Positions 2,784 to 4,236 of a DNA stretch of 4,236 nt are shown piece after piece. The stretch lies in assembly GCF_024298765.1 (NCBI RefSeq), contig NZ_CP101215.1. The stretch is one strand, 5' to 3'. The notes beneath the pieces were generated by a model. The model saw nothing but the letters and a program-made list of their open reading frames with translations. It was not told the origin of the DNA and made no database searches. Both the position numbers and the translations under genes were made by a program. The stretch's first letter is position 1. Every line of letters begins with the position of its first letter. This DNA comes from Escherichia coli. Lineage in GTDB: Bacteria; Pseudomonadota; Gammaproteobacteria; Enterobacterales; Enterobacteriaceae.

Positions 2784-2952
2784 GCCCCGGCGCGTAAGTG
2801 CCACATGCACCACCGGACGCCTTTGCGCTTCCTCGCACATTCGCTCGCTACGCTCGGTCATGAGGCTGCGGCGAGCGCTACCACCGCAATCACGAGGAAA
2901 CCAGCGCCATTGCTGGGCGGAACCGGAAAAACCGCAGGAACGCCAACAGCTC

Positions 2953-2974
2953 AAAAAAGCGCCGAAAAGGCGCT
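2953..2974 (-). terminator. Putative rep terminator hairpin (short stem plus T6 on the minus strand)
   Basis: Seen in sequence: plus 2958-2974 forms a-gcgcc-gaaaa-ggcgc-t, a 5 to 6 bp GC stem with a 5-nt loop. On the minus strand it is followed by TTTTTTGAG (plus 2951-2958). It lies 15-35 nt downstream of the rep stop codon (2989-2991). The stem is short, and the element overlaps the presumed origin. Confidence 0.35.
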
Positions 2975-2995
2975 GTTATCTGATAAGGCTATTTG
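2953..2995 (-). other. ColE2-type origin of replication (Rep-primed ori) immediately 3' of rep
   Basis: The minus strand reads CAAATAGCCTTATCAGATAACAGCGCCTTTTCGGCGCTTTTTTGAGC, starting in the last codons of rep. From memory, the ColE2-P9 minimal origin contains AGATAAGCCTTATCAGATAACAGCGCC just downstream of rep; the exact base-by-base match is not verified here. Placement directly after the rep stop fits the known ColE2 architecture. Confidence 0.6.
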
Positions 2996-3897
2996 TGCAT
3001 TGCCCAATTACGGATCGTATTTCGATGTACATCCAGCATCGCCGCAATAGCTTTCTGAGAATATCCATTCTCCAGCATACATAGCGCCATGAAACGCTTG
3101 TCCTCGTAGGCTTCGCCTTTAGCAAGGCCACCTTTCCGGCCTCGAGCGGCCTGTACAGCGGAAAAGCCTTCCGGTGAGAATTTTCTGTGCGTGTATTTCG
3201 CAATGCTCTTGCCAATAGCCCGGCATTCAGCCAGTGAAAGAGGAACGGGAAGCGATGCGTTGTACATTTCGACACGCTGGATCACGGCATCAAGCCACTG
3301 TGAGAATGCTGGCCATCCCTGACGAATCGCTCTGTAAGCCCATTTGCGCGTCATTTCGAACAGGTGGCAGTTTCGCCCCATCCCGTAATGTTTATCGATG
3401 CTACGACGCTCTGAGGCGCTCAAATCGAGATAATCTGCCAGTTCATCGAGGGTATAGGCTTCCTCGCGCCACTCCATCACCTGCCATTCCAGGTGGAACG
3501 GATTTTTGCAAATCAGTCCGCTGTAGTTCACATCAGCACAAAGTTTCTCACACAGCGAACGTTCAATCGCGGCAGCATATTTCAGCGCCTTAACCGACGC
3601 ATCAGGCGCGGTTCTCACGGCGATATTGAGTGCATAGAGCAGGTGAGCGTGTCCGTTCACAGGATTTTTAACGGTGATGTTCGGCGCGGGGGCGTTCCGG
3701 TCGCTCCAGTCAATCGCTGCCCCCTCGCGGTCAACGTCAAAAACCAGCCAGAACTGCGCATGAGGCTGGTTCTGCTGGATGTACCGCGCAAGAAGCGCAC
3801 GCCCTTTGCCGGAGATGCGAAGGCCGAAAGCGAGATCATCCGTGTGATAGGGACGGTGGGGTAAATTTTCTTCGAAGTATTGAAGCGCGGCGCTCAT
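2989..3897 (-). CDS. rep: ColE2-family plasmid replication initiator / plasmid-specific primase Rep (302 aa)
   Basis: ORF 2989..3897 (-). RBS GGAAGGAA about 10 nt upstream of the ATG at 3897-3895; stop TAG at 2989-2991. The protein has long stretches I recognise from ColE2-P9/ColE3 Rep: YIQQNQPHA, DWSDRNAPAPNITVKNPVNGHAHLLYAL, VRTAPDAS, YAAAIERSLCEKLCADVNYSGLICKNP, YTLDELADYLDLSA, LFEMTRKWAYRAIRQGWPAFSQWLDAVIQRVEMYNASLPVPLS, ECRAIGKSIAKYTHRKFSPEGFSAVQAARGRKGG. The C-terminal tail (…ENGYSQKAIAAMLDVHRNTIRNWAMHK) looks like a helix-turn-helix, consistent with origin binding. Confidence 0.92.
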   Translation of the reverse strand: MSAALQYFEENLPHRPYHTDDLAFGLRISGKGRALLARYIQQNQPHAQFWLVFDVDREGAAIDWSDRNAPAPNITVKNPVNGHAHLLYALNIAVRTAPDASVKALKYAAAIERSLCEKLCADVNYSGLICKNPFHLEWQVMEWREEAYTLDELADYLDLSASERRSIDKHYGMGRNCHLFEMTRKWAYRAIRQGWPAFSQWLDAVIQRVEMYNASLPVPLSLAECRAIGKSIAKYTHRKFSPEGFSAVQAARGRKGGLAKGEAYEDKRFMALCMLENGYSQKAIAAMLDVHRNTIRNWAMHK

Positions 3898-3996
3898 GTG
3901 TTACGATTCCTTCCAGGTTATCGACCGACATCGCCCCTGTATTTTCGTGACAGTCTTGCCGGATAGGCACGAATTTCAGGGGCGTTTGTTTTTTCT
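3880..3996 (+). ncRNA. Putative antisense RNA (ColE2 RNA I-like) complementary to the rep mRNA leader and start region
   Basis: Established knowledge: ColE2-type replicons control Rep translation with an antisense RNA of about 115 nt (RNA I) complementary to the rep 5' leader. Seen in sequence: a strong plus-strand terminator (stem 3932-3939 with 3977-3984, then TTTGTTTTTTCT) ends at 3996 inside the rep leader. The 5' end is inferred from the expected length; no convincing promoter was identified by eye. Confidence 0.35.
3932..3996 (+). terminator. Rho-independent terminator (hairpin plus T-run) on the plus strand within the rep leader region
   Basis: Seen in sequence: CGCCCCTG (3932-3939) pairs with CAGGGGCG (3977-3984), a perfect 8-bp GC-rich stem around a 37-nt loop that may fold further. 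It is followed immediately by TTTGTTTTTTCT (3985-3996). Confidence 0.5.
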
Positions 3997-4054
3997 GGCG
4001 CTTACCCTACACCCAAACGCCAAACCCTGTCGATCCTTCCCCAAAACCCGATCC

Positions 4055-4082
4055 ATTTACCATAACTCCCGTTGTACGTACC
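4055..4082 (-). other. Xer (XerC/XerD) site-specific recombination core site, cer/psi-like with 6-bp spacer
   Basis: The minus strand reads GGTACGTACAA-CGGGAG-TTATGGTAAAT. Compared with the ColE1 cer core as I recall it (GGTGCGTACAA-TTAAGGGA-TTATGGTAAAT), the XerD arm is identical and the XerC arm differs at one position. The central region is 6 bp, as in dif and psi, rather than the 8 bp of cer. Confidence 0.6.
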
Positions 4083-4236
4083 CTCTAAAACGCTCTCAGA
4101 CGCGTTCTGACGCAAAAAACGCAAAAAGACAAGGAAACACCAGGCTGAACCAGAAAAATGCGTCAGAATCGTTTTTAGGGCGCTGCATAACTATGCACGA
4201 AAGCGATGCGCGATCGGTTTCGACCGTTCAGAAGCG
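4083..4236 (-). promoter_or_regulatory. Putative Xer accessory sequences (cer-like), including an ARG-box-like palindrome; truncated by the window edge
   Basis: Established knowledge: cer-type sites need about 180 bp of accessory sequence on the XerC-arm side, with an ArgR box about 100 bp from the core. Seen in sequence: palindrome TGCATAACTATGCA at 4184-4197, about 105 bp from the XerC arm, matching TGnAT-N4-ATnCA of the ARG-box consensus at 8 of 10 core positions. Also a 10-bp inverted repeat, TTCTGACGCA (4105-4114) and TGCGTCAGAA (4159-4168), flanking an A-rich stretch. Confidence 0.4.

Follow-up and report, generated by a model that had tools for sequence, protein, structure and literature searches.

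What function does a GC-rich hairpin followed by a T-run serve when it sits inside the 5′ leader of a plasmid replication gene, on the strand opposite to that gene? The hairpin in question lies in the window, the whole stretch of 4,236 nt that was analyzed, which is an entire 4.2-kb Col156/ColE2-type mobilizable plasmid of Escherichia coli; Col156 is the replicon type assigned by PLSDB. An initial annotation of this DNA had proposed the RNA I copy-number regulator of ColE2 for positions 3880–4000, and had named folding of both strands and comparison with the ColE2 control region as ways to check it. We now consider it very probable that positions 3880–3996 form an incA cassette of the ColE2 type, which controls copy number and incompatibility. 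This is a familiar and ordinary element, and the window carries a short (~80-nt) version of it.

The gene that would be regulated and its origin were identified as follows.

Positions 2989 to 3897, minus strand: rep, the ColE2-type initiator-primase gene and regulated target, 302 aa (ORF list and domains).
Positions about 2949 to 2990, minus strand: ColE2-type origin (AGCCTTATCAGATAACAGCGCC...), directly downstream of rep (aligned with the colicin-E2 plasmid L014).

The Rep protein carries the Pfam domains Replicase (PF03090) and PriCT_1 (PF08708) and matches PDB entry 3VW4, which is the solved DNA-binding domain of ColE2 Rep. Judged from sequence, the replicon is of the ColE2 type, as the Rep domains, the PDB match, the origin and the PLSDB typing all point there. 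In ColE2-like plasmids, control of rep is post-transcriptional and is exerted by RNA I, which binds the 5′ untranslated region of the rep mRNA (PMC6856555, PMC5304414). For the ColE2 RNA I system, PMC6856555 cites Yasueda et al. 1994 and Hiraga et al. 1994.

The hairpin and the T-run have the following parts.

Positions 3932 to 3939, plus strand: 5′ arm of the lower stem, CGCCCCTG (sequence reading and fold).
Positions 3944 to 3949, plus strand: 5′ arm of the upper stem, TTCGTG (fold and covariation).
Positions 3950 to 3967, plus strand: apical loop ACAGTCTTGCCGGATAGG, with UUGCCG at 3956–3961 (alignments).
Positions 3968 to 3973, plus strand: 3′ arm of the upper stem, CACGAA (fold and covariation).
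Positions 3977 to 3984, plus strand: 3′ arm of the lower stem, CAGGGGCG (sequence reading and fold).
Positions 3985 to 3994, plus strand: U-run TTTGTTTTTT of the predicted RNA I intrinsic terminator, immediately 3′ of the lower stem (sequence reading).

The lower-stem arms pair perfectly over 8 bp (seven G-C and one T-A) and are separated by 37 nt (3940–3976). The initial annotation had read this stem, this spacing and the T-run on the strand opposite to rep and within its leader, and both the sequence and the position of rep bear it out. It had also described the 37 nt as an unusually large loop that could fold further. The second part of that description holds, since the fold of the interval gives an internal loop, a 6-bp upper stem and an apical loop; the first does not, as the true apical loop is only 18 nt long. 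We presume this loop (3950–3967) to be the kissing loop and the specificity determinant. Folding of 3880–4000 produced the hairpin on both strands, with z scores against shuffles of −1.98 on the plus strand and −1.55 on the minus strand. For the predicted transcript 3914–3996 the folding energy is −32.2 kcal/mol (z = −4.3; none of 200 shuffles was equally stable), and the minus strand of 3890–4003 gave z = −3.0. A generic terminator scan of the window did not list the hairpin at 3932–3984 because the scan demands a loop of 3–8 nt.

Upstream of the hairpin, a pattern scan and the alignments indicated a possible promoter for an antisense transcript.

Positions 3880 to 3885, plus strand: −35 hexamer TTGAAG of the predicted RNA I promoter, within rep codons 5–6 of the other strand (pattern scan and alignment).
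Positions 3899 to 3907, plus strand: extended −10 element TGtTACGAT of the same promoter, between the rep start codon and a Shine-Dalgarno-like tract (pattern scan and alignment).
Positions about 3914 to 3994, plus strand: predicted RNA I countertranscript of ~80 nt (fold and covariance model; both ends are predictions).

The promoter has a 16-bp spacer (3880–3907 overall) and is directed away from rep. A generic promoter scan of the window missed it because its hexamers agree with the consensus at only 8 of 12 positions; the case for it rests on the TG extension, and a targeted search for the extended −10 pattern replaced the generic scan. The pattern TTGA-N15-17-TGNTANNNT has a single match on both strands of the window, with 0.06 expected, and the same extended −10 pattern occurs at the homologous site in all 14 Col156/ColE2-type loci fetched. 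The −35 column is invariant in alignment A1, and distant relatives have TTGtct-16-TGcTAATAT at the aligned position. By these motifs RNA I has a predicted promoter of its own. The initial annotation had counted all of 3880–4000 as one element. Its span does contain the hairpin and terminator, but 3880–3913 is better read as promoter, overlapping the rep start codon and ribosome binding site of the other strand, than as transcript. We predict the 5′ end of RNA I 7–8 nt past the −10 element and its 3′ end in the U-run. On the plus strand, 3929–3993 reaches 96 bits against a covariance model derived from the relatives. RNA I is unannotated in the RefSeq and PLSDB records of the window plasmid, pEF5-18-41_6, and an Rfam search of the window returned no family matching it, there being no curated model to score against.

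The structure just described is shaped like an intrinsic terminator, and a cer-like site lies shortly downstream of the hairpin and U-run on the plus strand (~4048–4078). A plain terminator, a single-strand initiation site or another DNA-level hairpin unrelated to rep control, for example one that insulates the cer-like site from antisense read-through of rep, might thus be considered. However, the ORF list of the window contains no plus-strand gene upstream of the hairpin that could need terminating, whereas the predicted promoter is only ~30 nt upstream. The element also accompanies ColE2-type rep genes in plasmids of unrelated backbones, and the loop-focused variation and stem compensation described below are unexpected of a generic terminator. 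We assign hardly any probability to such a hairpin here.

The target of the predicted RNA I would be the leader of rep, which was delimited by a second predicted promoter.

Positions 3898 to 3996, minus strand: rep mRNA 5′ leader of ~99 nt, the RNA I target (fold; 5′ end taken from the predicted promoter).
Positions 4004 to 4033, minus strand: predicted rep promoter with −35 TCGACA (4033–4028), an 18-bp spacer and −10 TAGGGT (4009–4004) (sequence reading and inference).

This promoter was not found by a consensus promoter scan (8 of 12 matches); in alignment A1 its TGTCGA is invariant and its −10 block is conserved. The predicted transcription start of rep (~3996) falls just past the U-run of RNA I. 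Within the leader are the complementary stem-loop at 3932–3984 and a Shine-Dalgarno-like GGAAGGA at 3908–3914. Of the ~100 nt of the leader, the first ~80 have a perfect complement in the predicted RNA I.

Control regions that align with that of the window are present in a colicin-E2 plasmid of 6757 bp and in hundreds of Col156 plasmids. The similarity to the ColE2 control region that had been anticipated was found: identity with the colicin-E2 plasmids NZ_CP129256.1 (L014) and L012 is 81.5%, in two pieces between which the ColE2 version has 33 additional nt. Three features of L014, namely the colicin-E2 genes, the size of 6757 bp and the match of the Rep C-terminal domain to 3VW4 (268 bits), lead us to infer that it is effectively ColE2-P9. 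In the window and in ColE2, the cassette occupies the same position on the strand opposite to rep, in the leader of a primase-initiator gene with a ColE2 origin downstream. The promoter and the terminator hairpin of the window are homologous to those of the colicin-E2 plasmid, and the logic would be the same, with a countertranscript that can pair with the 5′ untranslated part of the rep mRNA. The two versions differ in length. The cassette of the colicin-E2 plasmid measures 113 nt from promoter to terminator and contains two hairpins; the window lacks the extra 33-nt 5′ hairpin, and therefore its RNA is predicted to be ~80 nt instead of ~113 nt. The transcript of 100–120 nt foreseen in the initial annotation is accordingly too long for this plasmid. 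Takechi et al., in 1994, reportedly described an RNA I of ~115 nt for ColE2-P9, and the predicted 113 nt of the colicin-E2 plasmid version fits this value. The two versions also differ in the apical loop, which reads UUGCCG in the window and UUGGCG in the ColE2 type; this change probably gives a different incompatibility specificity. ColE9-J shares the MOBQ4/Col156 plasmid family backbone of the window (PMC6856555).

Comparison of the relatives indicated which parts of the cassette are free to vary. The positions of the hairpin, the U-run and the upstream extended −10 promoter are conserved among them. An alignment of 13 control regions shows an invariant promoter, lower stem and U-run, with variation concentrated in the upper stem and loop, and the U-run is kept in all relatives, distant ones included. 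The same two-tier hairpin forms in each of 18 distinct sequences, taken from relatives with Rep proteins 43–100% identical to that of the window. Across these sequences, three of the five upper-stem pairs have both-sided compensatory changes and no non-canonical pair occurs; at position 5, two of the 18 simply have a shorter stem. To count the pairs, a script took the conserved U-A/C-G base of the upper stem as its reference point; its lower-stem counts, being out of register between groups, were not relied on. RNAalifold gave no structure for a MAFFT alignment of the 18 hairpins, in which the paired positions were not in register, and a covariance-model alignment was excluded from the pair counts because the near-palindromic hairpin gave hits from both strands. 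The sibling plasmid L023 differs from the window at six positions of the 37-nt interval, five of them in the apical loop (3951, 3959 and 3965–3967) and the sixth, 3943, in the internal loop. Most relatives have UUGGCG where the apical loop of the window has UUGCCG. Stems kept by compensation together with loop-focused variation are the pattern that would be expected of an incompatibility determinant.

As the hairpin forms equally on the rep mRNA strand, an antisense terminator and a cis-acting leader structure are inseparable by structure conservation. The hairpin might accordingly act in cis only, as a structure in the rep mRNA leader that enhances translation or affects stability, with no functional antisense RNA made from the plasmid. 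It is in keeping with this that the minus-strand leader folds into the same hairpin and weakly matches PK-repBA, a cis-regulatory Rfam family, and that stem covariation is strand-neutral. However, the U-run is on the plus side only and invariant in relatives, while on the mRNA it would be merely an A-run at the 5′ end, and the extended −10 promoter faces outward at a conserved position. A loop in which variation is concentrated fits a determinant of specificity that acts in trans, and an antisense RNA is documented for ColE2 (PMC6856555, PMC5304414). A purely cis-acting hairpin is thus very unlikely, and we expect the hairpin to serve both as the terminator of the antisense RNA and as a cis-acting leader structure. 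The identity with ColE2 RNA I put forward in the initial annotation gains support from the replicon type, the colicin-E2 homology, the conserved promoter, hairpin and U-run, the covariation and the literature.

A mechanism for the cassette can be proposed, in which expression, RNA ends, kissing, translational repression and incompatibility are modeled on the ColE2 and I-complex literature. The sigma-70 extended −10 promoter at 3880–3907 would drive an untranslated countertranscript of ~80 nt that ends at the intrinsic terminator formed by the two-tier hairpin (3932–3984) and the U-run (3985–3994). The rep leader would fold as the mirror-image hairpin. The two RNAs would then meet through their 18-nt apical loops in a kissing interaction, with UUGCCG on the antisense side, and extend to a duplex. 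The end of this duplex would adjoin the Shine-Dalgarno-like tract at 3908–3914, ~18 nt upstream of the rep AUG, and Rep translation would be blocked. A rise in copy number would raise RNA I and lower Rep and replication initiation, and the loop sequence would decide which related plasmids are cross-inhibited.

A more elaborate form of such control is found in the I-complex plasmids (IncI/B/K/Z, PK-repBA), where translation of rep needs a leader peptide and a pseudoknot formed by the loop of stem-loop I with a distal CGCCAA. The antisense RNA blocks both the leader peptide and the pseudoknot. Examples from the I-complex and IncL/M are the Inc RNA of ColIb-P9 with repY/repZ and RNAI of pMU720 with repB/repA (Rfam RF01089). 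PK-repBA (RF01089) is the sole Rfam match in the control region (28.8 bits, E = 0.0018, 3862–3985, minus strand). Distant replicons with a ColE2-type Rep score 35.8–50.4 bits against this model, four of seven reaching at least 45 (46.5–50.4); a leader ORF of 16–17 codons is present in eight distant loci, and CCGCCA stands 21–22 nt ahead of the rep start. A control region of this kind, with both leader peptide and pseudoknot blocked by antisense RNA, would explain the match in the window. Against it, the score of the window is under the gathering threshold of 45 bits. There is no leader-peptide ORF coupled to rep in the window because the rep ATG occupies the position of the relatives' leader-peptide ATG, and the sole short ORF in the leader (GTG at 3970) depends on sequence unconserved in relatives. 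On the minus strand of 3800–3931, a search for the distal pseudoknot partner TTGCCGG with up to one mismatch found none, so the mRNA strand from hairpin to rep has no sequence complementary to the mRNA loop. The UUGGCG-type motif (UUGCCG here, UUGGCG in siblings) is absent from the mRNA target loop and is on the antisense strand instead, the apical loop of the window being the reverse complement of the loop in PK-repBA-type relatives. The pseudoknot reading was rejected for the window, as it has neither leader ORF nor distal partner, and we regard an I-complex-type region here as extremely unlikely.

The ColE2-type cassette nevertheless shares several features with the I-complex and IncL/M systems. 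In each, the target is a two-tier stem-loop with an interior loop, the outward-facing antisense promoter adjoins the first start codon, and a UUGGCG-type loop motif is present; the top-loop nucleotides of RNA I determine incompatibility in I-complex systems (PMC10724649). Sequence similarity is weak but detectable, and the AAGGA...AUG of the window aligns with the leader-peptide ribosome binding site and start codon of the model. Beyond the missing leader peptide and pseudoknot partner, the below-threshold score and the reverse-complemented loop, the window differs in having no translational coupling and in its Rep, which is of the primase type and not of the I-complex RepA/RepZ family. We see about an even chance that the ColE2-P9/Col156 cassette is a derived, stripped-down form of an I-complex-type (PK-repBA) module that other ColE2-type replicons have kept. 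The leader-peptide body and the distal arm of the pseudoknot would have been lost in a deletion of ~43 nt, which would have fused the leader ATG with rep codon 2. The apical loop would have flipped between the two upper-stem arms, which form an inverted repeat, and this would have moved the UUGGCG U-turn motif from the mRNA to the antisense RNA; the window would hold the UUGCCG allele of the derived form. If true, this link would be a modestly interesting case of the remodeling of an antisense control module.

RNA I of ColE1 (RF00106) has only the name and the principle in common with the ColE2-type cassette, namely a small antisense RNA, kissing loops and copy number. Its target is a primer precursor, RNA II, where the ColE2-type RNA would act on an mRNA, and ColE1 does without a Rep protein. 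An RNA I of the ColE1 type was ruled out for the window, as Rfam gave no match to RF00106 at E values up to 1 and the replicon encodes Rep and has a ColE2 origin.

A further comparison is with the REx-C control modules of the Pseudomonas PFP/RepJ plasmids, which are ColE2-related replicons (Bardaji et al. 2017, PMC5304414). The resemblance to the window is that a rep gene related to that of ColE2 is preceded by a portable module of stem-loops and antisense RNA; in the REx-C modules, incompatibility maps to a few nucleotides of a stem-loop (PMC5304414). Some REx-C modules include a leader-peptide gene; in others it is missing, and rep begins directly after the stem-loops (PMC5304414). Unlike the window, they have a different host range and three described stem-loops, and no sequence relationship between the two is detectable.

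The cassette in the window is a textbook copy-number element of a common small E. coli/Salmonella plasmid family, and its recognition here matters little. Of 5426 complete E. coli genomes, 389 (~7%) carry the element, in every case on a plasmid, and some genomes hold two to four Col156-type plasmids. Roughly 3000 PLSDB records encode a Rep of the ColE2 type. At this frequency, and with no Rfam family matching the RNA, a curated covariance model would fill an annotation gap. Two copies of the cassette, with identical rep genes, are present in the plasmid pF11-5 (8013 bp), which looks like a partial dimer and is uninformative on the coexistence of different loop alleles. Loop alleles such as UUGCCG and UUGGCG probably predict which Col156-type plasmids can coexist, and if so they would be useful for sequence-based prediction of incompatibility. 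The exact allele of the window is rare: in PLSDB only its own record is at least 99% identical, and among the RefSeq complete E. coli genomes four records are 100% identical to it.

The 4236 bases of the window are all but one base of the E. coli plasmid pEF5-18-41_6 (NZ_CP063498.1, 4237 bp), for which PLSDB gives the replicon type Col156 and the relaxase type MOBQ. This is exactly the plasmid family MOBQ4(2), Col156, with the prototype ColE9-J, described by Garcillán-Barcia et al. (PMC6856555). The Rep protein contains the domains Replicase (PF03090) and PriCT_1 (PF08708) and matches the solved structure 3VW4, the DNA-binding domain of ColE2 Rep. In ColE2-like plasmids, RNA I binds the 5' untranslated rep mRNA and controls rep post-transcriptionally (Garcillán-Barcia et al., PMC6856555; Bardaji et al., PMC5304414). 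The features of the window are listed below.

110–2416, − strand: MobA/MobL relaxase, an uninterrupted ORF of 768 aa (domain match)
2508–2783: small divergent ORF
About 2949–2990: ColE2 origin sequence directly downstream of the rep stop codon, aligned with the colicin-E2 plasmid
2989–3897, − strand: rep, 302 aa
3932–3939 and 3977–3984, + strand, opposite rep: lower stem, CGCCCCTG and CAGGGGCG, perfectly paired
3944–3949 and 3968–3973, + strand: upper stem, TTCGTG and CACGAA, paired within the 37 nt between the lower-stem arms
3950–3967, + strand: apical loop of 18 nt, ACAGUCUUGCCGGAUAGG; small internal loops also remain between the stems
3985–3994, + strand: U-run TTTGTTTTTT, directly 3' of the lower stem
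4033–4028 and 4009–4004, − strand: conserved candidate rep promoter, TCGACA, 18 bp, TAGGGT (sequence reading and alignment)
About 4048–4078, flanks to 4233, just upstream of the rep promoter: what we take, from the ColE1 cer core, to be a cer-like XerCD multimer-resolution site (− strand GGTACGTACAACGGGAGTTATGGTAAAT)

XerCD multimer-resolution sites are mentioned for the Col156/MOBQ4 family (PMC6856555). The stretch 3973–4233 is about 89% identical to many large F-type plasmids. The mobQ relaxase, an uninterrupted ORF in the window, is flagged as frameshifted in the RefSeq record, and PLSDB gives only a 363-aa hypothetical protein. A terminator-like hairpin at 2974–2958 on the − strand overlaps the ColE2-type origin sequence.

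The initial annotation had described a perfect stem with arms 37 nt apart, followed by a T-run, on the strand opposite rep, and reading the sequence confirmed each of these points. Its suggestion that the 37-nt loop might fold further is borne out by the upper stem and its 18-nt apical loop. A promoter pattern combining the start of a −35 element with an extended −10 element (TTGA-N15-17-TGNTANNNT) has a single match on both strands of the window, at 3880–3907 (+), with a chance expectation of 0.06. The extended −10 promoter pattern is found at the homologous position in 14 of 14 Col156/ColE2-type loci fetched, and distant relatives have TTGtct, 16 bp and TGcTAATAT at the same position. From a start 7–8 nt past the −10 element, the predicted RNA I would extend from about 3914/3915 to 3994, about 80 nt. 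The rep mRNA would start near 3996 with a leader of about 99 nt, and RNA I would be complementary to nearly all of it, the complementarity ending beside the Shine-Dalgarno-like GGAAGGA (3908–3914), about 18 nt before the rep AUG.

Folding of the originally proposed interval 3880–4000 gave a structure barely more stable than shuffled sequences (z = −1.98 on the + strand and −1.55 on the − strand); the predicted transcript 3914–3996 folds at −32.2 kcal/mol (z = −4.3), with 0 of 200 shuffles as stable. A generic terminator scan did not list the control hairpin because it allows loops up to 8 nt only. The loop heptamer TTGCCGG (3956–3962) has one other exact match in the window, at 3806–3812 on the + strand inside rep, 150 nt away; this second copy is probably due to chance.

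The 6757-bp plasmid NZ_CP129256.1 carries the genes for colicin E2, immunity and lysis, and the C-terminal domain of its Rep matches 3VW4 with 268 bits over 121 residues. Comparison with the ColE2 region had been proposed in the initial annotation, and it revealed the same promoter, two-tier terminator hairpin and U-run in this plasmid. Both colicin-E2 plasmids (NZ_CP129256.1 and L012) have a 33-nt insertion (CCGCGCTTTCCCATCGGGAAACGCGG...) between antisense promoter and terminator hairpin, which creates an extra 5' hairpin absent in the window. The promoter-to-terminator distance in NZ_CP129256.1 is 113 nt, and the predicted RNA folds as two hairpins. The RNA I of ColE2-P9 is said to have been about 115 nt long in work by Takechi et al. 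in 1994. That the two lengths agree lends support to the promoter and terminator as assigned, and it implies for the window an RNA I of about 80 nt instead of the 100–120 nt expected earlier.

Across 13 aligned control regions, there is little or no change in promoter, lower stem, U-run and rep promoter block, and substitutions gather in the hairpin's upper stem and its apical loop. Six differences from the 98.5%-identical sibling pR17.1451_p4.2k fall within the 37-nt interval (3943, 3951, 3959, 3965–3967), one of them turning the loop UUGGCG into UUGCCG, and none in the lower stem. We also compared 8 distant loci (7 distinct hairpin sequences; Rep 43–69% identical to that of the window) from Col(Ye4449) types, Edwardsiella, Klebsiella and Aeromonas, and all 8 have a homologous hairpin and U-run on the antisense strand. 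The same two-tier fold is adopted by 18 of 18 distinct sequences. With the upper stem anchored at the invariant U-A/C-G base, position 3 is G-C in 12, A-U in 4 and U-A in 2; position 4 is U-A in 15 and C-G in 3; position 5 is G-C in 13, A-U in 2 and U-A in 1, the stem being shorter in two. No non-canonical pair occurs in the upper stem of these 18 sequences. This is how an antisense RNA and its target would be expected to vary if the stems are structural and the loop bears specificity; for the related I-complex RNAI the specificity role of the loop was shown by experiment (PMC10724649).

Most differences from the 4234-bp sibling pR17.1451_p4.2k (59 of 63) fall in an 850-bp patch at 3346–4195 with about 7% divergence, and the other 3.4 kb holds 4. 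It extends over the cer-like and control regions into rep, of which it takes in the N-terminal two thirds, and this points to a putative recombinational swap of a control and rep-5' module.

Near the element, Rfam gives a single match, to PK-repBA (RF01089), at 3862–3985 on the mRNA strand; its 28.8 bits fall short of the gathering score of 45. Distant ColE2-type replicons score 35.8–50.4 bits, 4 of 7 over the threshold. Like ColIb-P9 and pMU720, these distant replicons have a leader peptide and pseudoknot arrangement, some 50 nt ahead of their annotated rep starts: a 16–17-codon ORF starts at a conserved CACATG and stops 3–7 nt past the annotated rep start, and CCGCCA, complementary to UGGCGG of the mRNA loop, lies 21–22 nt before the rep start. 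In contrast, neither the ORF nor the distal CCGCCA is present in the window or in the colicin-E2 plasmid, and a complement of the mRNA loop was not found on the mRNA strand near the start of rep in the window. Their rep ATG occupies the position of the leader-peptide ATG of the distant replicons, and the Rep N-terminus (MSAALQYFEENLPHRPY) aligns with that of the distant Reps (LTSPALSLFCEHLPRKPY).

A 13-nt loop block, CAATCTTGGCGGA, is common to both groups only after flipping one loop (mean best ungapped match 11.2 flipped versus 7.0 unflipped); stem arms and flanks are collinear. It lies on the antisense strand in Col156/ColE2 plasmids and on the mRNA strand in the distant replicons and the PK-repBA consensus; thus the former group has the UUGGCG-type motif on its antisense RNA, and PK-repBA-type modules have it on the mRNA. 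The flip looks as if the segment between the inverted-repeat arms of the upper stem had been inverted. The absent leader ORF, absent loop complement and flipped loop rule out membership of the window in the pseudoknot family. The comparison suggests that the two kinds of control module share descent, and ColE2-related replicons are known to exchange control modules, in versions with and without a leader-peptide gene (Bardaji et al., PMC5304414).

The ColE2 RNA I mechanism, as originally proposed, is the best-supported reading, given the element's own predicted promoter, strand-specific U-run, loop-focused variation and homology to the colicin-E2 plasmid. The first three of these, with the failed pseudoknot and leader tests, speak against three rivals: a leader structure that acts only in cis, a pseudoknot system of the I-complex type, and a generic terminator or DNA hairpin. 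RNA I would be made constitutively and be unstable, its level following copy number. It would kiss the leader hairpin via the apical loops and form a duplex that stops Rep translation, presumably because it abuts the Shine-Dalgarno-like tract or because the leader loses its structure.

Of 5426 complete E. coli genomes, 389 carry the control element, in every case on a plasmid. It is not annotated in the plasmid's RefSeq record, and no Rfam family reaches threshold on it. It is of an already known kind, characterised in its plasmid family; anything mildly new is limited to the apparent loop inversion and leaderless derivation. The window allele (UUGCCG loop, GG at 3966–3967, extra T) is rare, with at least 99% identity only to its own record in PLSDB and 100% identity in 4 RefSeq records of complete E. 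coli genomes. The 8013-bp NZ_CP184148.1 has two mobQ genes and carries the cassette of rep and its control region in two identical copies; its layout resembles that of a roughly 4-kb plasmid that was dimerised head to tail or doubled by an assembly artefact.
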